Virus record (IMG/VR): IMGVR_UViG_3300036769_000405
DNA from: an uncultured virus (IMG/VR IMGVR_UViG_3300036769_000405)
Lineage: Duplodnaviria; Heunggongvirae; Uroviricota; Caudoviricetes
Strand: one strand, 5' to 3'
DNA length: 64,000 nucleotides
Of this stretch, positions 30,933-58,151 are shown one piece after another (position 1 is the stretch's first letter; every line of letters starts with the position of its first letter). The notes beneath the pieces were generated by a model. That model was given only the letters and a program-made list of their open reading frames with translations, was not told where the DNA came from and did not search any database. Position numbers and translations under genes: made by a program.

Positions 30933-31194
30933 GTTCATTGAAAAGAGAACTATCATTGAGACTGAGGTTAACAAGTTCCTCAAATCCTTAGAGAATCAGG
31001 ATGAGGACATTAAACAGAAGTGTGGCACAAAAGATGGTGTAACAGCGAGAGATCTGCTTCCGGCTTTATGGCTGGAACCATTCAATGAAGAAGAATACAA
31101 GAAGCAGAGGGAAGCTTTGGATACTTACATAGCTCAAGTATCAGCTGTGTGTGATCAGTTAAATCAGGAGGCAGCCGCATGTCTTCAGGCGTAA
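30886..31194 (+). CDS. Small coiled-coil protein within the Mre11/Rad50 operon
   Basis: Helical and charged; GGAGG SD. Confidence 0.7.
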   Translation: MSEQEIVKLLQDRQNEFIEKRTIIETEVNKFLKSLENQDEDIKQKCGTKDGVTARDLLPALWLEPFNEEEYKKQREALDTYIAQVSAVCDQLNQEAAACLQA

Positions 31195-37895: not shown

Positions 37896-38408
37896 ATGGA
37901 CACTTCATTGCAGGCTGTATCACAAGAGATTGATGACACAATACGTCAATTGATTATTGACACTAAGAAAGACTTAGAAGACGTTACGTTAGCTATTGAG
38001 GAACTTAGTGTGAAGCTGCAAAACATGGAGAAAACTGACTTGTCAGAAAATGCCGATTACCAGATTGCTAAAGATGAAAGAGCAATGAAAGCGGCTATGA
38101 GAAACTTATTGATTAAGCGTGTAGAATCGATGTCTCATGAAATCGGTAATTACACTCCTACCGGATTTATTCGTCTTGGAACAACAGTAGAGTTGATTGT
38201 AAACTCTATTGATGGAATTCAAAAGACATTACCTAAGAACAAGTTTGTATTCAAGCTTGTTCAACATGATACAAGCGATGCCTTAAAACGTTTAGTAGCT
38301 ATTGACAGTCATGTTGGTGCTGCTATACTTGGACGACCAGCAGGAGATATTGTTGTAGTTGAAGCGCCTGGTGGTAAAATCAATTATAAAATAGAAAGGA
38401 TTTACTAA
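37896..38408 (+). CDS. greA: GreA/GreB-family transcription elongation factor
   Basis: DLSENADYQIAK with acidic catalytic pair; LGTTVEL; SHVGAAILG...GDIVVVEAPGG...YKIERI. Confidence 0.88.
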   Translation: MDTSLQAVSQEIDDTIRQLIIDTKKDLEDVTLAIEELSVKLQNMEKTDLSENADYQIAKDERAMKAAMRNLLIKRVESMSHEIGNYTPTGFIRLGTTVELIVNSIDGIQKTLPKNKFVFKLVQHDTSDALKRLVAIDSHVGAAILGRPAGDIVVVEAPGGKINYKIERIY

Positions 38409-40630: not shown

Positions 40631-42009
40631 TCCAATCTTTGATCGGTATCATAAATGCTGTCGATTCTAGTTTGATCGATCAGAAAACTTCTTTACGCTT
40701 TAAGGATAAGAGCGCTTTCAGAACACCGGAAGCGCTCATTATTCATGAGCAGCAAGTAATCTCTGATGAACGTTTATTAGAAGCGTTACAAAGAGAATAC
40801 AATACGATATTAGTGACACCTACAGTTCGCTACATCCCTAAGGATATTCTTGAGATGTTTAGGCAACTACCTGTTGTAGTCCTTGACTATGATGTTGCTA
40901 ACAGTATTATTACTCTTGGTACTATACCTGAGTTTAAAGGAGTTAAAGATAAACTTTTTAGTGATCAGTACATTCTTCACTTAAGTTTAGTTCCTATATA
41001 CTATTACGTAGAACTTTACACAAAGCAGTTTGGAGAACCTGACTTTCTTGCAGAACTTCCTATTAAAGATAAATGGGATTTCATTGTACAAGAAGCTTTA
41101 CAGTTAGGTGCCTCTGATATAACAATCACTAACACTTATTCTGGTGCAAAGGTTTACTATTCGGCTCGTAAAAAGAAAGTAATGTCAAAACGTCAAATTA
41201 AACATGATGACGTTCATGAAATTGCTTCTTTGCTTTCATCATCAGCTAAAGCAACAATGGCTGATGATTCAGCCAAGCCTAGATTTTTTGCAGTAGATAT
41301 CAATAAACAGAATCGTGGGCGTGTTGTTATTAATAGAACTTATTATGGTGAGTTAATCACTATAAGAGTTTTATCAAATACTCTAATTGACAAATCATTG
41401 GAAGATTTGAATTTGTCATCATCAACAATAATGTTTATTCGTGAAACCATGTTGTCACAAGAGAAGGGTTTACGTTTATTTATTGGAGAGACTGGTGCTG
41501 GAAAGAACATGTCAATTCTTTGCGCTCTGTGTGAATTAGTTCGAAAGAACAATTACAAGATAGTCAGCTTGGAACAACCTGTGGAAATACTTGTTGACGG
41601 CATTGAACAAATAAATGCCGAGACTGACCAGGAATTTGAAGAGAATGCTGATTCACTGCTACGGCAGAATCCTGATATAGTGTACTTTACTGAAATAACC
41701 GCAAGAACAGCTAAAGCTATCATGCAACAATCAAACACAGCTAAAGCTGTTTTCTCAACTGTTCACGCAAACAGTATTGCGGATGTTTTATTCCGACTTG
41801 AAGATATAACACAAATGCCGATAGATAGAATTATTTTAACGTTACACAGTTGTGTATATCAGGAATTGGTTCGGGATGACAAACTTGATCGCGTTAAACC
41901 TTATACACGTTGTGTGTATTTCTCAGAGGATCTTAAAATGCGTTTGTATGGAAAAAGTATTCCTGAGATTATAGGAATTCTACGCGGTGAAGAAAATAGA
42001 TGGAAATAG
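40627..42009 (+). CDS. PilB/GspE-family secretion ATPase
   Basis: ISDERLLEAL N-domain, GASDI, GETGAGKN, SLEQPVE, LLRQNPDIVYFTEI, STVHANS. Confidence 0.85.
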   Translation: MIQSLIGIINAVDSSLIDQKTSLRFKDKSAFRTPEALIIHEQQVISDERLLEALQREYNTILVTPTVRYIPKDILEMFRQLPVVVLDYDVANSIITLGTIPEFKGVKDKLFSDQYILHLSLVPIYYYVELYTKQFGEPDFLAELPIKDKWDFIVQEALQLGASDITITNTYSGAKVYYSARKKKVMSKRQIKHDDVHEIASLLSSSAKATMADDSAKPRFFAVDINKQNRGRVVINRTYYGELITIRVLSNTLIDKSLEDLNLSSSTIMFIRETMLSQEKGLRLFIGETGAGKNMSILCALCELVRKNNYKIVSLEQPVEILVDGIEQINAETDQEFEENADSLLRQNPDIVYFTEITARTAKAIMQQSNTAKAVFSTVHANSIADVLFRLEDITQMPIDRIILTLHSCVYQELVRDDKLDRVKPYTRCVYFSEDLKMRLYGKSIPEIIGILRGEENRWK

Positions 42010-43524: not shown

Positions 43525-44435
43525 TGAGTAAAGTTTTACACATTTTTGACTTAATGCCTTTTATTCATGCTGGACATGTTAATAAGGCTTCTAAACTTGA
43601 ACAACTTGTTGATGTTGGTACAACATGGAAGATGCAAGTAACGCCCACTGGTGGGTTATCTTTAGTCTTCAACACTCTTTATCCTTTATTGGGCAAGGGT
43701 GATTTTGTGTTTTGTAGTGACAGAACTCCAACAATAAAGAAAGATATGTTAACAAGTTATAAAAGTAATCGTGACCATAATCCAAACATTGCAGTTGAAC
43801 AGGCTGTTGCAGAATATATATTGCAGGTTTGTAATTGCTCTGTAATAGCTCGTTCTGGGTATGAAGCAGATGATATTATTTACACACTTGTAAAACGGCT
43901 CCATTCTGCTTATGACGAGATTTACATTTATACAGGTGACTCCGATCTTTATTTCCTCGTAGATGAGATCGTTTCAATCAAGCCTAGTAGTAGTCAGGCA
44001 AAAGAAGTAAACATTTACAATTATGAGGATGTACTTGCTAAGAAAGGTGCAAGATATAATACAATGACTGTGCAAAAAATTCTTAAAGGTGATGTTTCGG
44101 ATTGTATCCCTGGATTACCTAAGAACTTACAATTGATACTTGCTCAGACATTATATCAAGAGCCTATGTTACCTCAATTAGGTAATAGAGAATTTGTTAG
44201 GCAATGGGTTCAATATTTAGCACCTGAAGCTGTTAAGCAAGTAGATCTGGTATTTCCGCTTGATGTTGATGATGTTCCTATTGACTTCTTGGAGCCTAAT
44301 AGGCACTACATAGTGAACTTTGGAGCAGCTATTAACAATAAGTATCTGCGTGGAAAAGGAACACCTGATTTTGATATTGACCCTTATATTAGTGATATTC
44401 AAAGTCACGGGTATTATATTGAGGAGGATAACTAA
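43524..44435 (+). CDS. Stand-alone 5'-3' exonuclease / flap endonuclease (PolI N-terminal-like)
   Basis: HIFD, YKSNR, GYEADDIIYT, TGDSDL, LKGDVSDCIPGL. Confidence 0.9.
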   Translation: MSKVLHIFDLMPFIHAGHVNKASKLEQLVDVGTTWKMQVTPTGGLSLVFNTLYPLLGKGDFVFCSDRTPTIKKDMLTSYKSNRDHNPNIAVEQAVAEYILQVCNCSVIARSGYEADDIIYTLVKRLHSAYDEIYIYTGDSDLYFLVDEIVSIKPSSSQAKEVNIYNYEDVLAKKGARYNTMTVQKILKGDVSDCIPGLPKNLQLILAQTLYQEPMLPQLGNREFVRQWVQYLAPEAVKQVDLVFPLDVDDVPIDFLEPNRHYIVNFGAAINNKYLRGKGTPDFDIDPYISDIQSHGYYIEEDN

Positions 44436-44710
44436 TGTCAGCTATTATTAGAAGAGATATACAAATTCCGGTAATTATAACACATGATAAGAAGCATTGT
44501 GATATTTATATTCCTGATATGGATATCACTGTTCATGGTCATGATTATGTTGATACATTATCAAATGCCATTATGAAAGCCAGTGCTATATATTATTACA
44601 ATCTTGAGCGTAATCTTAAGCTTGTGTTGAATACCACGTATGCACAGGCTGAAAAACTTTGTGCGACAAGAAAGGGTAGTTTCACATCCTATATCGGGTT
44701 AACTGCTTAG
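44435..44710 (+). CDS. HicB-like domain protein
   Basis: DIYIPDMDITVHGHDYVDTLSNA resembles V..PDL.G..T.G.T.EEA..NA. Confidence 0.55.
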   Translation: MSAIIRRDIQIPVIITHDKKHCDIYIPDMDITVHGHDYVDTLSNAIMKASAIYYYNLERNLKLVLNTTYAQAEKLCATRKGSFTSYIGLTA

Positions 44711-44720
44711 GGAGGTATAT

Positions 44721-47700
44721 ATGAAGAGAAATCTTAAAAAGATTATTACTTATATATGTCTACTTGCAGTTCTCGTAACTACTTTACCATTTCAAACAAT
44801 AACAGTAAATGCTATGTATGCAGATAGGGATGAGTTCTATAACGCTCTGTTTGCTACAGCAGCGGCTCCTTATTTGATGACTTGTCAGCCTGATGATGCT
44901 ATTATTCTAACGAGTAAAGTTGAATTAGTATCAGGTGATCAATCAGTAAACTATGATGGTGGTGTTTTTGATCTGCCAAGATTATCTTACAAGTACCATT
45001 ACGAGATATTTGGAAACAGTAATTATTTCCTCGGTGATACAATTTACCCTACATTATGTATTTATTCAGCAGCTAAAGATGGTTCGTGCACATTACGTAT
45101 TGTAAGTGATGCTGAAAGTAAAGTAGTGTTTTCTTGTACAGTATCTATTTCACCTGATACACCAAATTGGATTGAAGGTATTGACTATTGGTACCCGTCA
45201 CATGATCTTGCCGAAACAGATACACGACCAGCTGTTACTGCTAAGAAATTTGAAGACTGCTCTGCTGAAGTTGTACAGGGTATAATCGATGCTGGTGGTA
45301 AAGCACGTATGTACAATGGAACACCAAGTGCATACGACGCTAAAATGCATACAAATGCTATCGTTATGGATTCTTATACAATTACTCCTGAGTACTTTTG
45401 GGATTGTTTGTCTGGTTATTCATTTGATTTCTATAATGCAGCTGATGAAGCTTATGCTTACACACCACTTGAAATTTCTGATAGTAACTTCACATCTAAG
45501 TACAATATTAAAGATTATATTGGAGCAATAGATGATGGTTTAGGTGCCCGTGTTGGTCTTCTATTCGGAGGAAGTTTGTTAGAAGGCTGTACTTATAACA
45601 ATAATACTGGTGATTGTTCAACAATACTTACATCGGGTGTTACTTACCCACTCTACTATTTTATTGCAACATCAGCAGGTTGTTATTGGAGTAAGATTAC
45701 AGATACAACAGCTGTATCATCAGAAGAATTGAAATCAACTTCAACAAGTGCTCCTACAATGAGTTGGGCAGCTAATCAGTATTACAATCTTGAGACAGGT
45801 GTTACTACTACAATGGCTGGTATTACATCAGATGTTACTGATGATTCATTGGAATATGGTCCAATCTCTTTTGATGACTTTTACACTTCCAATTATAATT
45901 CTAGTGGTGGATTATCAATGAGATCAGGCAAGTATCAGTTTATGCACAGTAATACAACTACTGTTACTGGTATAAACGTGTACGCTAATTCACTTATGTA
46001 TAACGGTGTTATTCCACACTATGGTACATTAACTCTTCAGCAGAAACCTAATACTCTAACGATCAATTATTATTACAAGACGCCTACAGCTACAACTTGG
46101 AGATTACTTGATACGTTGAATTATACAGCTTCTACTTTTACATCAAGTGATTATCGTGCAATGCCTTCTATCGATAACTATGCTGCTAATTGTTGGTACA
46201 CTGATACTGACTTAACAACGAAGTTTGATCCATCAACAATGATTGATACAACAAAAGATTCAACGATATCACTTTATGGTAGTTATACATATGATGGTCC
46301 AACTTATAGTGTTACTTATTACAATAACCTATCTGGTGCTTCATCTACAGCAACATATAATCTTGATCAAAAGCCTACATTACCAGATAACCCAACAGCA
46401 TCTAATGGTTATTCTTTCAAGAATTGGGCAATCGTTAATAAGAAAGATGATGAGTCTGGAACTGATTATATAGCTTCTACATTTAGTCCTGAGGGTAATG
46501 CAAGTTATATATTCAAAACAATGTGGGATGTTGAGGGAATTATTGTTCGTGTGTTAACATCAAAAACCAACTACTACGTTGGTGATAATATAGATACATC
46601 ATTGTTACAGGTATGGGTCCAGGACAGTAGTGATGTGAACGATACCAGAATACTTGAATCAAATGAATACACTCTCAGTTCTACCAAAATAAGTAAAACT
46701 GGTATAAATCAGTTTACAATAACTTATACAAAGACTGGTGCAACTGCAATATGTGAACTTAATGGATTAGAAGTAATTCCTGTATCAATTTCAGCTACTT
46801 ACAAAGGTGGAGATACAGTTGTCGGAACTGAATTAAAACCAAGTGATTTTAACTGTGTTATTAATTACAATAACGGATCTAGTGTAGCTATTTCAGATTT
46901 CACAATTTCACCAACGACCATTAGTACTGTTGGGAATAATCCAATCACAGTAGCTTATACTGATTACACAACAAGTGTTTCTATAACCGGTATTAAAGAT
47001 GATACAAAGACAGCAACTTTAAAGTCTATTTCAGCTTCTTTTACAGGTAATCAACCTTATGTTGGTAGTACGATTTCGGCTAGTGATTTACTTGTTACAG
47101 CTTTCTATTCTGATAATACAAGTAAAACTTTAGCCTCAACTGCATTCACATTTAGCCCTAGTAAATTCAATACAGCTGGTATGCAATCTATTTCTGTTAG
47201 CTATAGTGGATTAAGTACATCTGTTCTTGTATCTGTAAAAGATAGTAGTAACAGTAGCTCAGGATCAAACTCTGGAAGCAGTGATTCTGATAGTTCAGGT
47301 TCTAGTGATAACAATACATCAAGTTCTGGAAGTAATACATCAAGTTCTAGTAATACCAATACATCAAGTTCATCAGGATCTAGTGATTCAGATGTAATTG
47401 CCGGAGACTCTATATTAGATTCATTATTCAGCGGATTATTTGATGACTTGTTTGATATGTCAAACTGGGATATTGATTATTCAGATTCTAGTTATGATTA
47501 TTCAGATTCAAGTGCAACATCAAACTCAGGAGGCAGTAGTTCAAACTCATCAAGTTCAAACTCATCAAGTTCAAACTCTAGTTCTTACACAAGTTCTGGA
47601 TTGAGTTCAAGTTCTGCATCATCAAGTGATAAAGGAACATCACCTGGATATCTACACGCTGCAAATATCCTAACAAATACAATGGGATTGGCTAATGCTA

Positions 47701-48599
47701 CTAGTTCTTCTATTGTTGATATCAAGTCTTATTTGGAAGCTGCTGACAGTAATTCTACTGTATATATAACTCTAACTAATGGTGCTAATGGTAATGATAT
47801 AACATCTGATATGTTTAAAATAATCAAGGATAAGAAGTTAAATGTATACCTTGATATGATATCATCTTCAACAACATCATCAGTAGCAAATTGGTTAATA
47901 TCAGGTGAATTACTTGAAGATACAGCAAGTGCTTTAAACCCTAACATTTCTTTTGAAGTTGAGGATAAGGCTTCTGATAGGCTTGTTTATTTCGCCACAG
48001 CAGGTACGGTATTTCCTACAGGTTTAACCTTAACAGTTTATCCTAATATCTCATGCTATGGTTCTGGTGAACTGATTCGTCTCTACAGTTGTGATTTGAG
48101 TAAGAATAATGCTCATTTGTTATCAACATTTACATGGCAGGATTCCGTTAATAGTATTGTTATGGATGTTTATACAACACCTAACTTGTGCTTATCAAAC
48201 TCATTGTTAGCTTATAACGATGGTGCTTCATTGAAAGATGAAAACGGATTGCCTAGTGTAGACGATACTGTAGAAACTGACGAAGATACAGATAGCTCTT
48301 TTGACTGGGGAGTCGAAGACGAAGAGGAACCCTTTGATTGGGGGGATAGTGAAACTGAATCCCCAAATCTTTCCAAGGTTCAACCTGTATTGATAATTTT
48401 AATTGCTGTTGCCGCTTTATCTGTACTTGGTGGTTTAGGTACTTTCTTAATACTACATAGTAAAAGGAAATCTATATCTATTGATAATAGCTTTAATGCT
48501 TTTATGGGTGATGAAGCTTCTGATAATTTAGAAGATTATGAAGAAGCTTCTGATGAATCTGAAGATGAAAATGACATGGATAATTTTCCAGAAGAATAA
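44721..48599 (+). CDS. Large membrane-anchored surface protein (B-repeat and Ig-like domains, Ser-rich stalk)
   Basis: Signal peptide; GYSFKNW; three YVGD/VVGT/YVGS Ig-like repeats; poly-Ser; C-terminal TM and acidic tail. Confidence 0.8.
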   Translation: MKRNLKKIITYICLLAVLVTTLPFQTITVNAMYADRDEFYNALFATAAAPYLMTCQPDDAIILTSKVELVSGDQSVNYDGGVFDLPRLSYKYHYEIFGNSNYFLGDTIYPTLCIYSAAKDGSCTLRIVSDAESKVVFSCTVSISPDTPNWIEGIDYWYPSHDLAETDTRPAVTAKKFEDCSAEVVQGIIDAGGKARMYNGTPSAYDAKMHTNAIVMDSYTITPEYFWDCLSGYSFDFYNAADEAYAYTPLEISDSNFTSKYNIKDYIGAIDDGLGARVGLLFGGSLLEGCTYNNNTGDCSTILTSGVTYPLYYFIATSAGCYWSKITDTTAVSSEELKSTSTSAPTMSWAANQYYNLETGVTTTMAGITSDVTDDSLEYGPISFDDFYTSNYNSSGGLSMRSGKYQFMHSNTTTVTGINVYANSLMYNGVIPHYGTLTLQQKPNTLTINYYYKTPTATTWRLLDTLNYTASTFTSSDYRAMPSIDNYAANCWYTDTDLTTKFDPSTMIDTTKDSTISLYGSYTYDGPTYSVTYYNNLSGASSTATYNLDQKPTLPDNPTASNGYSFKNWAIVNKKDDESGTDYIASTFSPEGNASYIFKTMWDVEGIIVRVLTSKTNYYVGDNIDTSLLQVWVQDSSDVNDTRILESNEYTLSSTKISKTGINQFTITYTKTGATAICELNGLEVIPVSISATYKGGDTVVGTELKPSDFNCVINYNNGSSVAISDFTISPTTISTVGNNPITVAYTDYTTSVSITGIKDDTKTATLKSISASFTGNQPYVGSTISASDLLVTAFYSDNTSKTLASTAFTFSPSKFNTAGMQSISVSYSGLSTSVLVSVKDSSNSSSGSNSGSSDSDSSGSSDNNTSSSGSNTSSSSNTNTSSSSGSSDSDVIAGDSILDSLFSGLFDDLFDMSNWDIDYSDSSYDYSDSSATSNSGGSSSNSSSSNSSSSNSSSYTSSGLSSSSASSSDKGTSPGYLHAANILTNTMGLANATSSSIVDIKSYLEAADSNSTVYITLTNGANGNDITSDMFKIIKDKKLNVYLDMISSSTTSSVANWLISGELLEDTASALNPNISFEVEDKASDRLVYFATAGTVFPTGLTLTVYPNISCYGSGELIRLYSCDLSKNNAHLLSTFTWQDSVNSIVMDVYTTPNLCLSNSLLAYNDGASLKDENGLPSVDDTVETDEDTDSSFDWGVEDEEEPFDWGDSETESPNLSKVQPVLIILIAVAALSVLGGLGTFLILHSKRKSISIDNSFNAFMGDEASDNLEDYEEASDESEDENDMDNFPEE
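47538..47578 (+). repeat. 15-bp tandem repeat AGTTCAAACTCATCA x2.7
   Basis: Encodes SSNSS units of the Ser-rich stalk. Confidence 0.8.
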
Positions 48600-48620
48600 T
48601 TTTTAATTTTCAGATTCTTT

Positions 48621-48648
48621 TATTTACTTAAGCAGTTATATACTTATG
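48621..48648 (+). promoter_or_regulatory. Putative promoter motif TATTT-N11-TATATA-N4-TG
   Basis: Same spacing as 10747 and 26915. Confidence 0.5.
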
Positions 48649-48665
48649 AAGGAGGCGACATCGAA

Positions 48666-49220
48666 ATGATTGAGCAGTACGTTCAAGCAAATAGCTTGTC
48701 TTGCCTTATGAACGAGGATAGAACAATCGAGATTATTCCTGAACCGTTTCGTATGCAAGGCTCAGTTTCATTCCGTGTCACCTACTCCGAGTATAGTAAC
48801 TATATTCTTTCATTACCTAAGGATACTGGCGTTATTTTAATGTCAGAACTTTCGTATTTACGAAACCTTGCATCTTCAGATAACCCGAAGCTGTACTCTT
48901 GCTTTTTAAAAGACTTAGCATTTGCGATATGTAAAGAAGTATGGTTTTCAGAGTGTTATGCAAAAGATGCTTCAATAATCCTACCTGCGTCTTACATAAG
49001 TAAGGTTATGACTGTTTCAGCCATTTTACAATCTTATCTATATTGTAGAGACGTAGAAAGTGAACTTTTAGGTAAAGTACAATCCGCAGGGTTTAAACCA
49101 TTTAAGACACAGCGTATACAAAATATACGGCTAGTTCAGTTAGCGGTCGTCTTGTATTCAATGTCTAAAGTTCCAAATGGTGTGGAAGAGGTTAATCTTG
49201 TGTACGACTTAGTCACCTAG
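48666..49220 (+). CDS. Hypothetical protein
   Basis: 184 aa, AAGGAGG SD. Confidence 0.7.
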   Translation: MIEQYVQANSLSCLMNEDRTIEIIPEPFRMQGSVSFRVTYSEYSNYILSLPKDTGVILMSELSYLRNLASSDNPKLYSCFLKDLAFAICKEVWFSECYAKDASIILPASYISKVMTVSAILQSYLYCRDVESELLGKVQSAGFKPFKTQRIQNIRLVQLAVVLYSMSKVPNGVEEVNLVYDLVT

Positions 49221-49240
49221 AAAAATTTTAAAATCCGAAT

Positions 49241-49544
49241 ATTATTTTTCTGGTGATTAAGTATATACAAGTGATGAGCGTTAGTAAAGCTAACACAAAG
49301 CTCAACTTCTCAGAGAATGGCGACACTTTGAGAAACATCTACAACTTAATATGTACGCTTTATTGCTTGGCGGGTTGTTTACAACAAACAATAAAACAAA
49401 GCTAGGAGAAGGTTAGGCTATCTTACCTTAAGTCACACGTCACACTCTAAGTCTGTCACATAGTGAATAGAATATGTAGTTCCTGCATCCCTGACTCTAC
49501 AAAATGATAGTGCTTACAAATTTACCAAATGGAGGTACATGTAA
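49241..49544 (+). promoter_or_regulatory. Promoter-like motif plus structured 5' leader of the 410-aa gene
   Basis: TTTTC-N11-TATATA-N4-TG at 49246-49273; stems TGAGC/GCTCA, TTCTCAGAG/CTTTGAGAA, TTTATTG/CAATAAA, AAGGT/ACCTT. Confidence 0.55.
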
Positions 49545-50777
49545 ATGAATTCTCAGAAGAAAGCAGAATTAGCAACATTCCTTATCAAGAATAAGGGAAT
49601 CCTGTTACCTGAAGATCAGGACGCTGAAATCAAAAAGATGTCTGCACAGTGCCCGGAAGCTACGGCTACCGAGAAAGGTCTCGTTGATGAAGTCGACAGA
49701 GCCTATGAAGTTATGATCATTATGAATGGAACCGCAGGAGATCCGACCGGAACACAGGTACCGGTTGCTACACAGCCGACCAGCAGCATTTCCGCTGCAG
49801 AAGAACTGCAGATCAGCAAGACTCTGCTTAAGCAGGGACAGGAGCGTGCCGCAGTTTCTGCCAACACTACAATCGATTCTTACGTTTTTGATCGTCCGGA
49901 CCCGGCAACTGTTATCAAGGCTGGAACCAAGGGACAGATCGTTGAGAAGTCTTGGAAGTCTTTCCAGGAGAAAATTGACAAAGGTACTTACGTAGTTCTG
50001 CCGGATGACGGTGCAGATGTTGAGGAAGGTAAGCGGATCGCTTCTACCACAAACTACAACGCTTTAAAGGCGGCTTTTGAAGCAGGATCGCCTGTTGACG
50101 TTTACATTGGTGGATTAAACAAGAAACCTATCGGCTATATCGTAGTAAAGGGTAGTGCAACTGGTGCCGGCAATGCACCGGTTCAGATGACGCGTGAGCA
50201 GCTGGAGCAGTTTACCATTATGGAGACCGCTGGTTACATCGTAGCTTCTGAAACGAAGCCGGGCGTTAAGCTTAAGTACATGAATGCAAAAGCAGATCCG
50301 ACCAATCCTGGAAAGTCCATCCCGGGCAAGACCATTCTGGCAGATGCCAACAAGAAGGCTGCTGTTGAGGCGGGATCCTACGATGTTTCTCGTGAAGCAA
50401 CGAGTGAAGTTGTTTCTACCGGATGTAAGTCCGCTTTACAGATCAGAGTAAAAATGCCGAGCAAGACTGCAAAAGACGGTGTAACACCGCTTACGAAAAC
50501 TGTACGTATTTCCCTTAAGGCAGATCTGCCGACTCTTACAAGAAAAGCAAAGTATGTTGATGTGTTTGGTACCGGTGAGCGTGAATCCAATTCTGACCTG
50601 ATCAATGTTCCGACCGGAGAGCAGGCAAAGAAGATCTCTGAGGCTCAGAGAAATGCCATCGCAACTCTTCGTCAGAAAGCGAATGATCCGGCAACTGTTG
50701 GAGACCTTGCAGCTATCGCTGACAAGCTGGCAGCTTTCGATGCTCCGGCTTCTCAGGCTCCTGGTGCAGTTCTGTAA
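49545..50777 (+). CDS. Orphan 410-aa Ala/Lys/Thr-rich protein, probably abundant
   Basis: GGAGG SD; codons visibly shifted to CCG/CTG/ATC/ACC/AAG relative to neighbours; no signal peptide or TM. Confidence 0.85.
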   Translation: MNSQKKAELATFLIKNKGILLPEDQDAEIKKMSAQCPEATATEKGLVDEVDRAYEVMIIMNGTAGDPTGTQVPVATQPTSSISAAEELQISKTLLKQGQERAAVSANTTIDSYVFDRPDPATVIKAGTKGQIVEKSWKSFQEKIDKGTYVVLPDDGADVEEGKRIASTTNYNALKAAFEAGSPVDVYIGGLNKKPIGYIVVKGSATGAGNAPVQMTREQLEQFTIMETAGYIVASETKPGVKLKYMNAKADPTNPGKSIPGKTILADANKKAAVEAGSYDVSREATSEVVSTGCKSALQIRVKMPSKTAKDGVTPLTKTVRISLKADLPTLTRKAKYVDVFGTGERESNSDLINVPTGEQAKKISEAQRNAIATLRQKANDPATVGDLAAIADKLAAFDAPASQAPGAVL

Positions 50778-50789
50778 TTAACACATGAT

Positions 50790-51660
50790 CGCGGCGTGCG
50801 GGGTACAGGTGTTACCTCGCACCATATTAAAATAAGAAAGCACACTGAGTACTCTATTAGGCTAACGTCCGTCCATAAAGCCATAAATTAGGTATTTTGT
50901 TATCTCCCAACAACGTATACCTAACGTTAGCCTAACAGAGTACTTAGGTGCTCTAGGTACCGACTACCGGTGAGTTAAGAGTACTCTGGTTGGTATCTTA
51001 TAAGGCATTATTCGTCACATACAGGTTGCGACGTACGCCTATTAAACGGTGTTAGTTACCGAGCCATACTTATCGGTAACATTGTGCTAGCCGACGGGCT
51101 GATTCGGCGGCGTATGAAAAGGCGAAGTGGGCGGCCGGGAAACATGCCCCAGGTAAAAGGTTAAGTCGCCGTACCTAATAATCGGCGGCGTATGAAGCGC
51201 GGCGATACCACCAGGTGGTGAGATCCGGGTGGAATGCCGTATAAGCGAAGAGTCTGACGCAGTAGGGGAAATTGCCTCTACTGTTGGGTCAGACTACTAA
51301 TTAAGATGTCCGCAAGGTTGCGGATTGGTGGTATTTGTAGCCACCATGCTTGATGTATTGGGACAGAACGGAATAGTGTGGCTGCTAGATACTGCAGTCA
51401 TGTTGTTTAGTCACCCTGAACATCGTGGTATTGATGAGACTCTCTAGCCATTATGCTATTATAGTAGTCACAGCTGCTAGATAGCTGTTAGGGACTGTGA
51501 ACCTAACTATCTGTTCAGCTTCTATGTGTAACTTAGTTGGAAGATACACTGGATGCTGAGTCCAACAAACAGATTTTAGCGTTAATTCGCACTGGTACAA
51601 CTTTGAGTTCTCAATATAAAGCGGTAGGGGCTTTTCATCGGCTCCCTACCGCTTTTTTTC
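50790..51660 (+). ncRNA. Candidate large highly structured ncRNA (~870 nt), family not recognised
   Basis: No ORF; GC-richer; more than 10 consecutive stems with G-U pairs on the + strand; internal repeats; ends in a terminator. Confidence 0.75.
51618..51660 (+). terminator. Rho-independent terminator
   Basis: AAAGCGGTAGGGGC-loop-GCTCCCTACCGC followed by T7. Confidence 0.9.
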
Positions 51661-51726
51661 AATAAGTATACTGTTTAGTTTTGATAACCCCGTTATTAAA
51701 TCTAACACTTATTTGGAGGAAACTTT

Positions 51727-52878
51727 ATGAAAAGACCTGCTACATTTGAAGATATTAAAGGACATACTTGGCTTGTTCAATATCTCAAAGAAAACATTAC
51801 AAAAGGAACATTACACCACTTTTTGATATTAGAGGGGCCTGAAGGTCTTGGTAAGACATCTTTAGCTGATTTAATAGCACTCTCATTAGTTTATGGATTA
51901 GAGCCATCTAAAGCACGCGATGATGCTTATAAAGAGGTTGTTGTTAAGAAAGGTACTAATAATAATATTAAAAGATTTGAGTGTTCTGTCGACGGTGGTA
52001 AAGACGTTGCACGTTTAATTAAAGATGAAATGAATACAACGTTTACTGTTAAAGGTCCTAAAGTTATTATATGTGATGAATGCCATGGATTAACTGAACA
52101 GGCACAAGATGTGTTTCTGGCTGAGACTGAATATATCGGGGATGATGTTTACATCATCATGCTGACAACTGAGATCACAAAGTTAAAAGCTTCGCTAAGG
52201 TCTAGGGCTGTTCCGATTCACTTGAATCCATTGAAACAGTCTGAAATGGTTTTAGTACTTAAAGCAGAAGTAACAGCAAGAAATTTAAAGATACAGAATG
52301 AAGATATAGTCCTAGGTATGATTGCTGAATGGTCAGAATGCAAGCCAAGAACTGGATTAAATATTCTGGATGCGTTCGGAAATGGTTCTGCAGTTTCTAT
52401 GAATGCAATACGTGAGTTGATCGGTTACTTGGATATTAGAGATGTTGTTCCACTATTGGCTTCATTATCTGGCTCTATGACATTTGGATTAAGTTATATT
52501 TCAGAAATGCAGGTAAACGCCTCATTAATTAACAACGTTATTGAATGTATTAATTTGAAATCTGGAAATGGTTCTTACAAGATTAAAATGCAAGATGTTC
52601 CATACGTTAGAGATCAGCTTGTTAATGTTTCTGTTGAGCAGCTTGTAACATTCCTTTATGGAATTACAAAGAGTAGTAAGTTAACAAGGACATTGATTAT
52701 TAACGCTTACATTAGTGCACATGAGTCAGCACAGTCTTTAGTTGATTCAGATACTCATGAGACTCTAGCCTTGGAAAACATTCAGCGTTCAAATGTTCAA
52801 CTTGAAGTTGAGCATTCAGCAATGACAAAAGCACCTACACTGGATGACTTACTTATAAGTAGTAAAATAATACAATAA
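51727..52878 (+). CDS. DnaX (gamma/tau)-like clamp-loader AAA+ ATPase
   Basis: RPATFEDIKGH, GPEGLGKTS, ICDECHGLT..AQD, LRSRA; lacks the four-Cys Zn module. Confidence 0.85.
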   Translation: MKRPATFEDIKGHTWLVQYLKENITKGTLHHFLILEGPEGLGKTSLADLIALSLVYGLEPSKARDDAYKEVVVKKGTNNNIKRFECSVDGGKDVARLIKDEMNTTFTVKGPKVIICDECHGLTEQAQDVFLAETEYIGDDVYIIMLTTEITKLKASLRSRAVPIHLNPLKQSEMVLVLKAEVTARNLKIQNEDIVLGMIAEWSECKPRTGLNILDAFGNGSAVSMNAIRELIGYLDIRDVVPLLASLSGSMTFGLSYISEMQVNASLINNVIECINLKSGNGSYKIKMQDVPYVRDQLVNVSVEQLVTFLYGITKSSKLTRTLIINAYISAHESAQSLVDSDTHETLALENIQRSNVQLEVEHSAMTKAPTLDDLLISSKIIQ

Positions 52879-52891
52879 GGAGAATATTGAA

Positions 52892-53677
52892 ATGAAAAAA
52901 TTTATTTCTATACTAGTTGTTCTTAGTATTCTTTTAACAGGATGTAGCTTTACAAAATCTAACTCAGACAGCATTAAGTTGTCTGATGCTACATACACAC
53001 TTGAAATACCAGTAGCAGATGGTAAAGTGTTTACAATAGAAGTACCTACAGATTTACAAATTATGGCAACTGACAATAATGTATACTTTAAATTTAACAA
53101 TGATATTGTTATGTACGCTACTCACAATACAGAGTCTAGCTCTGAGGTAACCAAGTATGCTGTATCTAGACAGGTAGAAGAACGTTATATATTCGCTAGA
53201 TGTGATGGTGCTGTGAACAGACTGAAAGAGACCTTTGGAAACGGTATTATTAAAGATTGTGATGTAAAACTCTACATTGAGACTGAACTTAAAGAATTTC
53301 CTGAGTACATGGATATGTCCGATGATATGATACTGTATGATAATAATCTTTATATGCCAGACGGTTGTGAGGAAAACACAGTTAATATCTACACTTCCGA
53401 ACTTCTTTGTGATGGCGAATCATGGTTGGAGAGTTGGATCATGGATGGTACTTATGATGATATTAAAGATACACTAGCAACATATTGTATTACTAATTCG
53501 GGATCAGATAAGATTAATTATTGGTACAAAGATGATAACATTGTTATTATGTATTCCGGAGATAATATTGTTGCAGCCAAGAAATTACGCTATAATGAAT
53601 GGTATGTGTATTCCGGAAGTGCTATGTATGAAGATTACATACTAACTGGTGTAGATAAAGTACACAGTAGTATTTGA
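52892..53677 (+). CDS. Putative lipoprotein
   Basis: MKK-hydrophobic-LLTGC lipobox. Confidence 0.8.
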   Translation: MKKFISILVVLSILLTGCSFTKSNSDSIKLSDATYTLEIPVADGKVFTIEVPTDLQIMATDNNVYFKFNNDIVMYATHNTESSSEVTKYAVSRQVEERYIFARCDGAVNRLKETFGNGIIKDCDVKLYIETELKEFPEYMDMSDDMILYDNNLYMPDGCEENTVNIYTSELLCDGESWLESWIMDGTYDDIKDTLATYCITNSGSDKINYWYKDDNIVIMYSGDNIVAAKKLRYNEWYVYSGSAMYEDYILTGVDKVHSSI

Positions 53678-53687
53678 GGTACTGTTT

Positions 53688-54056
53688 ATGATAATTATAT
53701 CAGGGATCAAAGATATTGACTTTGCTCAATATGATCAAGTTTGGTACATTACCAACAACAACCCTAACATGCGAGTAGGTGCTCAGCATCATCAAGAGTT
53801 AGCACCACCTGCAAATTACTATTACCAGTATAGACAAGGTGCTATCTCATTAGACTCTCTACTTAATGAATATGGAAGCAAATTATGGTCTGGTGTTTAC
53901 AAAGAAGCTATTGATAACTTGATTGGATTGTCTGAGTCAGAGTTATGGATTCAGTTAGTTTGTTATTGTACTAATTATAATAAATGTCACCGCTATGTAT
54001 TATATAGATATCTTAAAGAGATTTATGATAAGGTAGTTTGTCTTGATATTCAGTAA
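53688..54056 (+). CDS. DUF488-family protein
   Basis: ELAPP and LVCYC....CHR motifs. Confidence 0.75.
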   Translation: MIIISGIKDIDFAQYDQVWYITNNNPNMRVGAQHHQELAPPANYYYQYRQGAISLDSLLNEYGSKLWSGVYKEAIDNLIGLSESELWIQLVCYCTNYNKCHRYVLYRYLKEIYDKVVCLDIQ

Positions 54057-54070
54057 AGGAGACTTTTACT

Positions 54071-54685
54071 ATGGTGTTTACGATCGAATCAGATGATAAG
54101 AAAGCTACTATTTTAGCGAGTCAGAAACAAGAGCATTTAAAATTGCAAAAGTTTTGTATAGGATTTCTATTAATGTTATTCACAATAGTAATATACTATA
54201 TCAGCACTAAGTTGATTGTGATAAAGGAGAGTTTGAATGAATGGGAATTTGTTTTAACTCTTTTGAGTTTTTGTTTTACTATAGCTTTGGTATACATATC
54301 ACTTGGCGATAAATATAACATTGGACAACCTTTGAATTTTGCAATGTTTATAGATGAGCAGATTCAAATAAAGAACAAGACGTTTATATATCGTTACAGG
54401 GATATGTATGATTTACATGATGGTTGCTGGAGATATATCATATGTGATCTTAACGGTGGTATTGAAAGTGTTAAGTATTCAGTTGATCAGCATAAAGTAA
54501 CGATTGATGGCTTGCTATATACTGCCAGGTTATCTAGTGATAAATGTGAGATTACAGCATTTGATTATGAAGAAGCTATATGTATGCCATTCTCATTTTA
54601 TGATTATTTCACAACTGGTCTCTACGAACAGTTAATTGAGGAGATTAAAAGAAATGATAATGCTATCAGGAAAGAAGCAAGTTGA
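54071..54685 (+). CDS. Two-TM membrane protein
   Basis: Two N-terminal hydrophobic helices; AAAGGAG SD. Confidence 0.7.
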   Translation: MVFTIESDDKKATILASQKQEHLKLQKFCIGFLLMLFTIVIYYISTKLIVIKESLNEWEFVLTLLSFCFTIALVYISLGDKYNIGQPLNFAMFIDEQIQIKNKTFIYRYRDMYDLHDGCWRYIICDLNGGIESVKYSVDQHKVTIDGLLYTARLSSDKCEITAFDYEEAICMPFSFYDYFTTGLYEQLIEEIKRNDNAIRKEAS

Positions 54686-55013
54686 TTGTCAGCAATATGA
54701 TCATGTTTGGTATGTAACTCACACATGTCCTGGCATGAAAACAGGTTGTGAACATCATCCTGAATTAGCTGCTTCTAAGAAGACTTGTAATTTGTGTTAT
54801 CCTCCACATACTGACTTAGATTTATTCTACAAAGAGTATGTTAGGGAATTAACCTCTGAGCCTAGGATTTCCAAACTTAAGCAAATAGTTGAAAGATCTG
54901 AAGCTGGTGAATGGTTTCAACTTATATTTTATGAGGATGACCCTAATGATGGTGAACGTCCTTATATGTATAAGATTTTAAAACAATTAACTAACGATGT
55001 TTACATCGAATGA
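54654..55013 (+). CDS. DUF488-like paralog lacking the Cys/His motif
   Basis: QYDHVWYVT...HHPELA...GEWFQLIFYE aligns with 53688..54056; CHR replaced by GER. Confidence 0.7.
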   Translation: MIMLSGKKQVDCQQYDHVWYVTHTCPGMKTGCEHHPELAASKKTCNLCYPPHTDLDLFYKEYVRELTSEPRISKLKQIVERSEAGEWFQLIFYEDDPNDGERPYMYKILKQLTNDVYIE

Positions 55014-55201
55014 AAGGAGACAAGATAATGAGTAGCAAAACTTTAAACTTACTGACATTTTTAGCAGGCGTTGCAGTTGGTGCAGCTAGCACATTTGTAG
55101 GTGTAACAATTCACAATGCTATTGAATGTTTGGATGAAGATGAAACTTCAGAAAATGAAGATGATTATTTCGAAGATCCGGATATTGCTACAGAGGAGTA
55201 G
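55010..55201 (+). CDS. Small TM protein with acidic tail
   Basis: FLAGVAVGAA then D/E-rich; start probably 55028. Confidence 0.65.
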   Translation: MKGDKIMSSKTLNLLTFLAGVAVGAASTFVGVTIHNAIECLDEDETSENEDDYFEDPDIATEE

Positions 55202-55219
55202 TAAAGGAGTAGGTACATA

Positions 55220-56380
55220 ATGGACGATACATTAACTTTAGATGAATGTATTGATCTTGTTATAACACAATTTACCAGATATAACCAGACTGGTATCAAT
55301 TGTGTCAACAAGGGTGCTATGACTCTGGAATCTTTTAAACAGGATGTCTATTCTTTTATGGATTCCAGAGTACCTGCTGAATTTCAGGATATTTGCTGGG
55401 ATGAATTACAAGCTGCTGCTTGGAATTACGATATTATTAAACCACTCATATACGATGACGGTGCTATTTCAGACATTGTTATTCATGCTTGGAATAATGT
55501 TTGGATAAACACTAGAGGTCAGTGGTCTGAATGGAGTAAACATTTCAGAAACGAAGATCATTACTTGCGATTCTTTAACCACGTTTGTTTTATGACTGGA
55601 ACAGTAGTAAATGAAAACAATGCTTGTGAAAATTGTACTGATATTTACACATGTCCTGACTTCAGATTGAGAATTAACTTCGTACACAAGTCTATAAATA
55701 CGGATGGTAACAATGTTTTATCTTTCCGTAAGATTCCTACACATAAGAAACTTTTGAATGATTTAACAAGTCCTGAAGAGGGTATGCTTACTGGAGATAT
55801 GTTACCTATTATACATAAGCACATTTCTGAAGCTACCGGTATTCTAATATGTGGTATGTCAGGTAGTGGTAAGACAACTTTTCTAAATGCTTTAGTTGAA
55901 GAGTTACCTAAAAATTGGAAGTATCTTTTTATACAAGAGAATGAAGAGTTGTACTCAGATACAAGACGTAATTCAGATTTCTTAAGAACTGTTAAAGGTA
56001 TTAATCAGTATGATGTCAAACATGATTTAAAAGAGATTGCTAGACAAGCACTTCTTATGTCTATTCAATGTTGTGTTGTTGGTGAAACAAAGGGTGGAGA
56101 AGCTCTTTATCTTTTGAATATCATGACAAACGGTGCTTTAGGTATCACTACTGCACATACTGATAGTGCTGAACATGGTTTGACAAAAATCGCTGATTAC
56201 GTTAAGTATGAATCTGACTATACACAAGATCAATGTTTGCAGATGCTTACTGCAATGAATAAAGTTTTCTTTTTGAAAGATTACAGACTGCGTGAGATTA
56301 CAACAGTACATGGTTACGATTCTGAGAAACATCAGTTAATAATGTCAACTGAACATTACAATCCAAATCCTAGGGTATAG
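55220..56380 (+). CDS. TadA/CpaF (VirB11-like) secretion ATPase
   Basis: IKPLIYDD..ISDI, SFRK, GMSGSGKTT, IQENEEL, VVGETKGGEA, TTAHTDSA. Confidence 0.88.
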   Translation: MDDTLTLDECIDLVITQFTRYNQTGINCVNKGAMTLESFKQDVYSFMDSRVPAEFQDICWDELQAAAWNYDIIKPLIYDDGAISDIVIHAWNNVWINTRGQWSEWSKHFRNEDHYLRFFNHVCFMTGTVVNENNACENCTDIYTCPDFRLRINFVHKSINTDGNNVLSFRKIPTHKKLLNDLTSPEEGMLTGDMLPIIHKHISEATGILICGMSGSGKTTFLNALVEELPKNWKYLFIQENEELYSDTRRNSDFLRTVKGINQYDVKHDLKEIARQALLMSIQCCVVGETKGGEALYLLNIMTNGALGITTAHTDSAEHGLTKIADYVKYESDYTQDQCLQMLTAMNKVFFLKDYRLREITTVHGYDSEKHQLIMSTEHYNPNPRV

Positions 56381-56423
56381 CTGACATTAGAGTTATACTC
56401 TAGGTGTTATGGAGGGTTTCATT

Positions 56424-56900
56424 ATGACAGATAATTATCAGGAACGTTTTAAGTTATACTATAAAAAAGCTGTTTGTGCTGATGTACTATTTCGCGATGA
56501 TGCTGGAGGTGTTCGTTTAATGTATTATTACATATATGAATGCTTATTAAACCTACTTTTAGCAAAGTTCTATCCTGATACCAAGTTTGACCAGGAACCT
56601 TATCTTGATGAACTTGTTGATATGATCGGAATTAATGAAGATATGACTGAATATGAAAGTCATTGGTATAAAGGTATTGCCAAGGTTATGCATAAAGCCT
56701 TCGCAAATCCAACCAATATGCACAAAATAGATGTTGCAATTAAGGATAACCTTATGAATAAATTACACACTATTGCTCATGCTAGATGCATAGATGATTT
56801 TGACAACACTACTGACTTCTTTATGTTAGGGGCTTATCTACATGATAATGAATTTCTATATGATGGAATTTCTCTACCTAAGGAGTTTGTTTCAACTTAA
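56424..56900 (+). CDS. Hypothetical protein (weakly HEPN-like)
   Basis: YYYIYECLLNLLL helix and LDELV; no catalytic motif seen. Confidence 0.5.
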   Translation: MTDNYQERFKLYYKKAVCADVLFRDDAGGVRLMYYYIYECLLNLLLAKFYPDTKFDQEPYLDELVDMIGINEDMTEYESHWYKGIAKVMHKAFANPTNMHKIDVAIKDNLMNKLHTIAHARCIDDFDNTTDFFMLGAYLHDNEFLYDGISLPKEFVST

Positions 56901-56938
56901 ATTTTAGTAATGCTTATTAGTTAGACAGGAGATTTAAA

Positions 56939-57121
56939 ATGGCAATTTACAGCACTGAATATATTGTAGCAGTTGTAGTTATGATGACACTTGTACTACT
57001 TATGTTTATCATAACTTTGATAATCTTTGGAAAGAACGTGGAGAGTTCTCATGAAAGTTTATTTAGTCACTTACGACTGTGGATCAAAGTACATAGAAAC
57101 AGTCCAAGTAAGAGTAGATAA
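56939..57121 (+). CDS. Small single-TM protein
   Basis: AGGAG SD; long hydrophobic helix. Confidence 0.6.
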   Translation: MAIYSTEYIVAVVVMMTLVLLMFIITLIIFGKNVESSHESLFSHLRLWIKVHRNSPSKSR

Positions 57122-57310
57122 AACAACATCCCATATAATGATGATATGCTTCATTTTAAAAACAGCTGATTATAAGTCTAAAGAAACCACACTGGTACAA
57201 AGAATATACTTCAGGAGAAGCTGATAAAGAATATATGGAGGTTTCTATACATATCAACGACTTAAAGATTATTTTGTAATCTCTAGACTTGATGTGTAGT
57301 ATAAATTAAA

Positions 57311-58024
57311 GTGGATAAGAACATGATAATATTTTTAAGATTATCTTTTGTAATTATTTTTACTTTTATTCTTTTTGTTATTTATACTTTCATAGCAGGT
57401 AAGTACAGAGAATCTGAAAAGAATACTACAGTTACTGTTAAATTACCTGTAAGTACTATCCAGAACACTACAGTATTTTACATAAACGATGTACCTATAC
57501 ATTGTTTAATGCAAGTACAAGAATTCCTTGATATGGGTTATTCACTTTATAGCTCTAATGAGAATTTACAGAGTGATACTTATATTGATGGTTTAACTTA
57601 TTTACCTGATAATGCTTTATTGTTGAAGAAAGATGATGAATTGGATCTTCTTGTGTATATTATCAATCTTGATACTGAACAGCAGTTAGTCACAGATTGT
57701 TATGTTTACTATTATGGTTTAACACCATTAAGTTATTCATCACATGAGTTTGATCCCTATTCCCAGCACATAACTTTCTTTGATTCAGTAAAGTTTGGAG
57801 ATAGTTTAAACACAATTAATACACAATTTGGTGACTATCTTTCTAATTCTACAGAGATGACTCTAATGGAAGGACAAGCATCTACATATAATTACAGAAA
57901 AGATCCTATCAATTATTCATTGAATGTTCACAATGAGTTAGGACTGTATGAGTTTTATGTTAATGTTGAGAAACGTAGTCTTATAGATGGTGGATTTACA
58001 AAGGAGTATATTCAGATAAGATAG
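57311..58024 (+). CDS. Membrane-anchored extracellular protein
   Basis: N-terminal TM; soluble domain ending SVKFGDSLNTI...FG. Confidence 0.7.
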   Translation: MDKNMIIFLRLSFVIIFTFILFVIYTFIAGKYRESEKNTTVTVKLPVSTIQNTTVFYINDVPIHCLMQVQEFLDMGYSLYSSNENLQSDTYIDGLTYLPDNALLLKKDDELDLLVYIINLDTEQQLVTDCYVYYYGLTPLSYSSHEFDPYSQHITFFDSVKFGDSLNTINTQFGDYLSNSTEMTLMEGQASTYNYRKDPINYSLNVHNELGLYEFYVNVEKRSLIDGGFTKEYIQIR

Positions 58025-58151
58025 AATTAAGTAGTAATCAAAGTAATAAAGAAACGTCCTAAAATGACAGCACGTTTGTGTGATAAACTTGTTATTAAGG
58101 GAAGTATTCAATGCTTTGAAATACATAAAATTATAAAGGAGGTGCTACGTC

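Follow-up and report, generated by a model that had tools for sequence, protein, structure and literature searches.

An operon with a strongly codon-biased orphan gene and a candidate large structured RNA in an uncultured gut phage-like element

We examined a 64,000-nucleotide (nt) stretch of DNA from an uncultured virus of the Caudoviricetes (IMG/VR record IMGVR_UViG_3300036769_000405). The whole stretch is referred to below as the window. The region of interest lies between 48.6 and 51.7 kb and its features are listed in Table 1. Two genes, encoding orphan proteins of 184 and 410 amino acids (aa), are arranged in tandem. Downstream is a 949-nt gap (50778-51726) with no open reading frame (ORF) of more than 49 aa (translation table 11). 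The gap ends at a clamp-loader gene. Taken as a whole, the region is on balance best explained as a strongly expressed module of a large uncultured phage-like element of animal guts. The element should measure at least ~185 kb, because the window's own 184-aa protein is recorded on a contig of 184,686 bases. We also lean towards the view that the gap gives rise to a candidate new large phage non-coding RNA, processed from the read-through transcript of the operon.

Table 1. Positions of genes, signals and predicted structures in and around the two-gene operon.
Feature	Position	Strand	Remarks
Sigma-70-like promoter match	48571..48600	+	ATGACA, 18 nt, AATAAT (10/12); ahead of the 184-aa gene; consensus match, not proof
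184-aa orphan gene	48666..49220	+	first of a conserved pair; homologue directly upstream in 4/4 related loci
Promoter-like word TATATACAAGTG	49262..49273	+	aligns with look-alikes in L002/L003 and L004
Two leader hairpins	49275..49334	+	49275-49304 and 49307-49334; second has loop AAUGGCGACA
410-aa orphan gene	49545..50777	+	strong codon bias
Hairpin just past the stop codon	50796..50822	+	centroid structure
Long hairpin	50839..50952	+	28-pair basal stem, 50839-50868 against 50924-50952, including one G-U pair and leaving two bases unpaired
Core of the candidate structured non-coding RNA	50954..51592	+	extent from RNA-library contigs
Exact 15-nt direct repeat TCGGCGGCGTATGAA	51104-51118, 51182-51196	+	inside the RNA; 78 nt apart
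Exact 11-nt direct repeat	51381-51391, 51473-51483	+	inside the RNA; 92 nt apart
Intrinsic terminator	51617..51659	+	hairpin 51620-51652, then T7 tract 51653-51659
Clamp-loader gene	51727..52878	+	phrog_5846 3.9e-37, DNA_pol3_delta2 2.4e-11; conserved downstream neighbour

The 410-aa gene has a GC content of 0.485. Its GC content at third codon positions (GC3) is 0.448, the highest of the 63 ORFs retained in the window; most others fall between 0.17 and 0.35. Compared with 50 other ORFs, the gene over-uses the codons CCG (0.77 versus 0.11), CTG (0.42 versus 0.07), ATC (0.72 versus 0.18) and ACC (0.37 versus 0.07), an excess of 4-7 fold. A first-pass annotation of this DNA had named the same four codons as setting the gene sharply apart from its neighbours, and the counts bear this out. 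Four related loci (L002, L003, L004 and L005) were available for comparison, three of them (L002, L003 and L004) with downstream DNA. In each case examined, the GC3 of the homologue tops its neighbourhood (L003, 0.571 versus 0.43-0.51; L004, 0.641 versus 0.33-0.43; L005, 0.605 versus 0.399). The bias is a family trait and, therefore, selection for heavy translation fits better than recent transfer. The 410-aa gene is apparently among the most expressed genes of the element.

We searched for the region in RNA libraries. Positions 49200-51750 were present in 11 animal-gut metatranscriptome runs, eight of which contained at least half of the sampled words. Together with the family-wide codon bias, this agrees with the high expression originally proposed. 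Four of the runs (X1, X2, X7 and X9) were compared with positions 48600-54100. The data were assembled contigs, all matching at ≥99% identity. Contigs of the operon started at 48635-48663 and covered both genes to 50836-50849. For X1, a single record of 2190 nt spanned both genes and extended 72 nt beyond the stop codon. In three of the four runs, operon contigs reached 59-72 nt beyond the stop codon and ended within the 5' arm of the long hairpin.

A self-contained unit starting at 49241 had been suggested from the sequence. The unit in fact begins one gene earlier, since the RNA contigs span both genes and the 184-aa gene has a homologue directly 5' of the 410-aa homologue in all four related loci (182-184 aa, 39-45% identity). 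Other records also pair the two genes. Thus, 16 contig sizes are common to the two families' match tables, the two genes have consecutive locus tags in one NCBI record, and L005 (a 1958-nt contig) is the two-gene unit itself, starting 27 nt before the small gene and stopping 7 nt after the large one. For 21 of the 53 clusters of the 410-aa family, the longest contig is only 1.8-3.2 kb, as would be expected of transcript-derived contigs of this operon. Many contigs of the 410-aa family measure 2.8-3.1 kb and may include the RNA as well as both genes, the distance from 48661 to 51592 being 2932 nt. The 184-aa family comprises 82 clusters, none with a family name. The protein itself had no Pfam or PHROG match, and the best E value in a profile search of the PDB was 0.31.

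The non-coding part of the region formed a separate contig in all four runs, from 50914/50958 to 51592/51597. The individual contigs were 50956-51592 (X1), 50940-51592 (X2), 50914-51152 plus 51137-51597 (X7) and 50958-51592 (X9). They began in or just past the 3' arm of the long hairpin. The other end was at 51592 or 51597 in every run, ~28 nt before the terminator hairpin. In X1, X7 and X9 the contig ran on past this end into AGATCGGAAGAGCGTCGTGTAG, which we take to be Illumina adapter read-through sequence. Adapter directly after the contig end means that fragments truly ended there, and the position therefore marks a fixed RNA end. The side on which the adapter is found at 51592 is presumably that expected of a + strand 3' end with the most common type of stranded library. 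Positions 50850-50913 were uncovered in all four runs, and uncovered parts of contig data are not evidence. Contig depth for the RNA and the operon, respectively, was 50.5 versus 16.5 (X1), 70 versus 18-25 (X2), 9-17 versus 7-11 (X7) and 18.9 versus 4.5-10 (X9); contig depth cannot rank parts, and we do not claim a higher abundance of the RNA. In the flank (51728-54100), taken as a silent control, there were only two short pieces, both from X2 and one clearly foreign, which are not usable as evidence.

Among the 17 gaps of more than 150 nt, this one has the highest GC content, at 0.449 (range of the remainder, 0.244-0.401). It has no + strand ORF of more than 74 aa when TAG is read as Q or with translation table 4 (TGA read as W), as a recoded gene would require. 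The gap folds at -334.8 kcal/mol, compared with -264.6 ± 9.5 kcal/mol for 20 shuffled sequences (z -7.4). The core of the candidate RNA gave z -5.4, and a piece of coding sequence of equal length and similar GC content z -1.0. We also scanned positions 1-27900 and 44001-58100 in 200-nt segments, using 12 shuffles for each, so that individual values are noisy. All nine segments between 50801 and 51601 had negative z-scores (-0.6 to -7.0); the 13 segments inside the coding sequence of the 410-aa gene ranged from -2.45 to +0.62. These data substantiate the structured region that had been noticed downstream of the gene. Inside the RNA, the exact repeats suggest repeated modules or alternative pairings. 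The 15-nt repeat had 63 single matches in IMG/VR, with extended similarity of no more than 24 nt, and these are attributed to chance. No model in Rfam 15 matched any part of the window at the gathering score. At E values up to 10, positions 49100-51800 gave six chance-level matches only (microRNA, sRNA and snoRNA models; best E 0.13). A search of GenBank phages found no DNA similarity to the region.

The terminator in Table 1 is the first U-tailed one after the 410-aa gene. Between the stop codon and 51617 there is none, as had been stated previously. A simple terminator scan did not list this site, we believe because its loop exceeds the 8-nt limit of the scan. The hairpin just past the stop codon is not a terminator because the sequence that follows is A-rich, not U-rich. 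The region had been described as one highly expressed transcript. With no terminator before 51617 and contigs that read through the stop codon, this is plausible for the primary transcript; it does not describe the non-coding part, which is separate, with its own fixed end, in all four runs.

We propose the following route to the RNA. RNA polymerase would pass the weak hairpin after the stop codon, as the contigs extending beyond that codon suggest. The transcript would then be cut at the 28-pair stem of the long hairpin by an RNase III-like activity. Long duplexes are classical RNase III substrates; a processing site of this kind calls for a duplex of ~20 pairs or more, and the predicted stem exceeds that length. 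Trimming from the 3' side may then stop at the base of the last helical domain, where positions 51587-51591 pair with 51496-51500 in one of the folds. The downstream part would persist as a discrete RNA of ~640-680 nt, probably of the + strand, ending at 51592-51597. An internal promoter could be an alternative origin. If the RNA rides on the operon promoter, a high copy number during infection would be expected. By analogy with proposals for other large phage RNAs, it would most likely act in trans, as a compact scaffold or decoy. It is less likely to serve the 410-aa protein as a subunit.

The region could instead be a cis-acting 3' untranslated region (UTR) only, the hairpin stack shielding the operon mRNA from 3' exonucleases or insulating it from the gene that follows, and the free RNA would then have no function. 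Stabilising hairpins are common at the ends of mRNAs. The location between stop codon and terminator suits this explanation, as do the variable presence and sequence of the region among relatives and the fact that no covariation has been shown. However, ~0.8 kb is far beyond what stabilisation needs, and L002 and L003 manage with a spacer of 105 nt and a single terminator. The contigs, moreover, show a separate piece that ends short of the terminator hairpin rather than at it. We therefore judge a purely cis-acting role unlikely.

The strand of the RNA also needs consideration. The + strand is favoured because it folds better, because all retained ORFs are on this strand and because the orientation of the adapter fits a 3' end. 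Thus, the 63 ORFs retained (of 69 listed with at least 100 aa) are all on the + strand; six of the 69 are on the - strand, five of these within + strand ORFs. For the core, folding is more favourable by 49 kcal/mol on the + strand than on the - strand (z-scores of -5.4 and -3.8, respectively). A - strand RNA would start near 51592-51597 and run towards the long hairpin (50952-50839), antisense to nothing coding. The contigs are without strand, and the sharp adapter end could be a 5' start if the first read of the library is sense. The - strand does fold better than shuffled sequences. Set against this, besides the difference in folding and the direction of the ORFs, the contigs stop short of the hairpin that would have to be the terminator, and our scan found no - strand promoter near 51600-51640. 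Hence, a - strand RNA seems improbable.

Several observations weigh against the explanation that we favour. The long hairpin has a U-rich run after it on the - strand, where hairpin and CUUUCUUAUUUU together resemble a terminator. All 11 runs have the same year and library description, so that they may represent a single campaign. Assembled contigs do not reveal the strand, the level or the true start of an RNA, and carry-over of DNA into RNA libraries is possible. The function of the 410-aa protein, considered below, is a guess, and the match of its ribbon to HU is weak. Finally, L002 and L003 are without the RNA, and blastn detected nothing significant between the gap of L004 and that of the window (best E 0.11 over 17 nt, on opposite strands). 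A covariance model of positions 51180-51330 scored 8.7 bits in the L004 gap (E 0.46), tied with a match in coding DNA of L002. From the sequences compared, the RNA is without covariation or comparative support, and its homology to the L004 gap is unproven.

The related loci nevertheless have a common layout. L002 and L003 (48% protein identity to the window) count as one lineage because they are close to each other. In both, 105 nt, with a terminator, separate the homologue of the 410-aa gene from the clamp-loader ORF. The RNA is absent from this lineage and its function is therefore dispensable for relatives. In L004 (35% protein identity), the homologue and the clamp-loader ORF are separated by a non-coding gap of 917 nt (3854-4770) that folds at z -14.4. 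The GC content of this gap is 0.504, compared with 0.451 for the contig. The L004 gap may hold another large structured RNA. A two-sequence consensus fold of the window and L004 gaps was weak (-19.8 kcal/mol). The best covariance-model match was a local motif common to both gaps, a GCGGC/GCCG stem that encloses a hairpin and is followed by UAUAAGC. The order of terminator then clamp loader is found in L003 and L004 also. At the clamp-loader position, L002, L003 and L004 each have an ORF of like size (384-385 aa), matched by size and position alone. Judged from these sequences, some lineages carry long structured non-coding inserts at the site between stop codon and clamp loader. The RNA looks like lineage-variable cargo between stop codon and terminator, and is not found with the protein in every lineage. 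The first-pass annotation had posed constant co-occurrence of protein and RNA as a check; L002 and L003, which keep the protein without the RNA, show that the two do not always go together. Elsewhere, IMG/VR scans with two alignments and with the single 410-aa protein found no family member. The species genomes searched held no relatives, and GenBank phages gave no protein match. A further locus, L001, was discarded as a relative; the similarity was a chance-level match of 34 residues inside a 198-aa ORF.

We next consider the 410-aa protein. At 90% identity its family forms 53 clusters, and at 50% identity there are 117 representatives; almost every member is ~400 aa long. Among the nearer relatives, P0002-P0011 share 66-74% identity with the window's protein and P0002-P0021 57-74%, several of them being encoded on contigs of 12-250 kb. 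It is a widespread gut-phage family and a genuine orphan. The window's protein had no match in Pfam (E up to 0.1) or PHROG. For 37 distant family members there was no PHROG match and no Pfam match above the curated cut-off. A 70-sequence profile had no match among PDB sequences (best E 0.11, to an unrelated protein). The protein consists of an N-terminal helical module (residues 1-60), a linker, a 262-aa core (84-345), a second linker and C-terminal helices. The C-terminal tip is conserved, with L395, A397 and F398 present at ≥90%. The full-length model had a predicted local distance difference test (pLDDT) score of 81. The core, modelled with 70 sequences, reached pLDDT 97 and a predicted template modelling score of 0.86. 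Compared with solved structures, this core had no Foldseek match (best E 0.18). In a comparison with 48,161 chains using VIA, the best Z was 2.9 and only 20 chains had Z ≥2; unmatched models typically reach Z 7-8. ESM Atlas gave no usable match for the whole protein or the core, and the Atlas model was poor (pLDDT 0.33). The earlier statement that the protein belongs to no recognisable family thus survived searches of Pfam, PHROG, PDB profiles, Foldseek and VIA. In our view the 410-aa protein is probably abundant, and its confidently modelled core has a fold that is not recognised. A homodimer prediction scored 0.00 against a mark of 0.42, which is no evidence for or against a dimer.

The core contains a two-stranded beta ribbon (283-333), with strands of ~26 and ~19 residues (283-308 and 315-333). 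In the model, side chains along the ribbon alternate between hydrophobic and Lys/Arg/Thr, making it amphipathic and basic. HU and IHF likewise have a long two-stranded basic ribbon. HU chains were the sole recurring Foldseek look-alikes, all weak (E 0.97-1.4, probability 0.33-0.51, 62-63 columns; 1hue 0.51 and 3rhi 0.33). In VIA, the HU look-alike had Z 2.4 and a root-mean-square deviation of 10.6. Unlike HU and IHF, the 410-aa protein has no match to the Pfam family Bac_DNA_binding, is four times larger, and the rest of its 262-aa core is unmatched. As a tentative first guess from the model, the protein may have a nucleic-acid-binding role in or near replication, because of the long amphipathic basic ribbon and the place of the gene in a replication gene cluster. 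Alternatively, it may be an abundant structural protein, as had been suggested. Neither HK97-type capsid chains (either model) nor OB-fold chains (core) were among the Foldseek and VIA rows, and the protein had no Pfam or PHROG match; absence from the list does not exclude a family.

The N-terminal bundle was compared with solved structures in the same way. Its best VIA matches, over ~50 residues, were ANTAR RNA-binding domains (NasR, Z 4.6; Rv1626, 4.1; AmiR, 3.9; EutV, 3.7). A Z of ~4 for a three-helix bundle is inside the VIA background, and the protein had no Pfam match. The N-terminal module (approximately residues 4-79) recurs in otherwise unrelated proteins of ~270-520 aa, alone, in tandem or elsewhere in the chain (P0112, P0120, P0144, P0149 and P0160). 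There are five stretches in P0112 and four each in P0120 and P0144. P0112, P0120, P0144 and P0160 had no Pfam match above the cut-off and no PHROG match.

These properties bear on whether the protein and the downstream RNA are partners, through binding or assembly, in a single functional ribonucleoprotein system, as the first-pass annotation suggested. The gene and the RNA are adjacent with no terminator between them, and both are found in the same RNA libraries. The basic ribbon and the weak resemblance of the N-terminal bundle to ANTAR domains would suit such a partnership, and the L004 homologue likewise precedes a large structured gap. However, two of the three relatives with downstream DNA, from one lineage, keep the protein without the RNA. 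The L004 gap is structured but cannot be aligned, the ANTAR scores lie within background, and the complementarity that leader loop and RNA show in the window is absent in L004. The suggestion is thus partly undermined by the relatives, and we consider it distinctly unlikely.

The surrounding genes raise a further possibility, namely that the RNA is a structured primer or origin transcript whose fixed 3' end is made by RNase H. The model for such an end is ColE1 RNA II. Besides the adjoining clamp loader, the window encodes a UvrD-type helicase (33690-35717), a primase, a 5'-3' exonuclease or exonucleases and RNase H, and the RNA does have a fixed end. Conversely, cumulative GC skew climbs steadily along the window and does not change direction near 51 kb. 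The gap contains no iterons and no AT-rich unwinding region; it is instead the most GC-rich gap. In addition, relatives are without the region. A role as a replication element is therefore highly improbable.

The discrete RNA that we favour can be compared with known phage systems. The T7 early region and lambda produce polycistronic transcripts that are processed by RNase III. Similarly, a near-perfect hairpin of 28 pairs lies here exactly between two separately assembled RNA pieces. Unlike in T7 and lambda, cleavage is predicted, and contig ends are not precise RNA ends. Gene 32 of T4 encodes an abundant single-strand DNA-binding protein and has a regulatory leader. The 410-aa protein is also abundant and encoded in a replication cluster, with an N-terminal module, a core, a flexible linker and a conserved C-terminal tip, and the leader of its gene has a conserved hairpin. 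Unlike for gene 32, no OB fold is recognised and the protein has no sequence match.

Large structured RNAs of phages offer a second comparison. According to passages of one study, prophages and phages encode ROOL and GOLLD, GOLLD is often longer than 800 nt with expression that rises during lysis, and both RNAs form nanocages (10.1101/2024.12.08.627333). The same passages state that the GOLLD, ROOL and OLE profiles were taken from Rfam (10.1101/2024.12.08.627333). Like GOLLD and ROOL, which are made during infection, the candidate RNA is hundreds of nt long, densely structured and phage-borne, with no known protein partner. Unlike them, it matches no Rfam model even at the permissive E value used above, and the covariance models for the large RNAs GOLLD, ROOL, OLE, HEARO and raiA were not matched in the window. 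GOLLD and ROOL are often near tRNA islands, which is typical but not defining; ARAGORN found no tRNA or tmRNA genes in the 64-kb window, although the phage-like context is shared. The candidate RNA also differs in its location, which is the read-through region 3' of a protein operon, and is without a covariation-supported structure.

A bolder interpretation is that the region represents a new class, in which an RNase III-type hairpin is the point where an RNA is freed from the 3' end of the most abundant mRNA of the phage. The RNA would build up as a compact ~650-nt particle, which would either self-assemble, like ROOL and GOLLD, or load onto the co-expressed new-fold protein, giving an RNA or RNA-protein body in the infection of gut Clostridia. 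We regard this as rather unlikely. Large structured phage RNAs are few and their functions are still obscure. For this candidate there is direct RNA-library evidence of a discrete species with a defined end, and a clear proposed route of production, properties that should make its synthesis and testing easy. The 410-aa protein, with a very confident model, no solved structure alike and apparently high expression, is a good target for structural and functional work. Should covariation fail, the region would be a structured 3' tail of unusual length, and only the protein would then be of interest.

The leader between the two genes (49221-49544) had been described as hairpin-rich. As a whole it folds like shuffled sequences (z -0.18; 43 of 100 shuffles fold as well). 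Structure is confined to the 5' part (the first ~110 nt, about a third), where the two hairpins of Table 1 lie and where 200-nt segments at 49101 and 49201 had z-scores of -5.4 and -8.0. The description therefore holds for this part only. The hairpin loop (U)AGGCGAC recurs on different stems in L002/L003, L004 (a weak stem) and L005, although only four distinct sequences are involved. At the sequence level, the recurring loop is a lead, not proof. Pairing of the loop (GGCGAC) with GUCGCC at 51165-51170 in the RNA was considered and rejected; the 6-mer count was 4 compared with 4.2 expected, and the L004 gap has no such site.

The leader had also been credited with a promoter-like motif. Sigma-70 matches in the region numbered 10, compared with 7.0 ± 2.9 expected, which is not above chance, and the motif is no better than chance as a sigma-70 promoter. 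What remains is the alignment of TATATACAAGTG with words in L002/L003 and L004. No look-alike is found in the L005 row of the alignment. A degenerate form of TATATACAAGTG has this one match in the window (0.82 expected) and is a lead only. Ahead of the 184-aa gene, the word TATATAC occurs at 48637-48643. It was rejected as a general promoter word, with 19 matches compared with 18.6 expected.

Across nearly all 1-kb bins of the window, the GC content is about 0.30-0.40. No capsid, portal or terminase genes were recognised within the 64-kb window. One relative carries the NCBI label of a Lachnospiraceae metagenome-assembled genome. At 26901-28865, a structured gap is again found together with an orphan gene of biased codon usage. 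Here, 200-nt segments in the gap (26901-27548) had z-scores of -7.2, -5.7 and -6.2. The gene that follows encodes 438 aa and has a GC content of 0.443 and a GC3 of 0.387, ranking behind only the 410-aa gene and a 105-aa overlapping ORF (30877-31194, GC3 0.443). The 438-aa protein had no match in Pfam, PHROG or PDB sequences. At 5441-6455, 1015 nt of ordinary GC content (0.31) are without an ORF of at least 100 aa; the segments at 5201 and 5501 had z-scores of -4.4 and -3.2.

Genes with HEPN-domain, NERD-nuclease and GreA/GreB C-terminal-like products are among those at 1355-1792, 10062-10730, 37896-38408, 53688-54056 and 54636-55013. Two small genes share similar starts; the first (53688-54056), the only one of the two scanned, matches DUF488. 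Genes of cell-envelope type are present in this phage-like genome at 40627-42006, 44721-48599, 55220-56377 and 58455-61271. They include two ATPases of the T2SSE family, a 938-aa BspA-type leucine-rich-repeat protein and a 1292-aa protein that combines Big_3 and Listeria-Bacteroides repeats with Ser-rich stretches and, at its C terminus, a hydrophobic segment. Part of a 2026 preprint reports that huge phages encode such cell-envelope-type proteins (10.64898/2026.10.24.761521).

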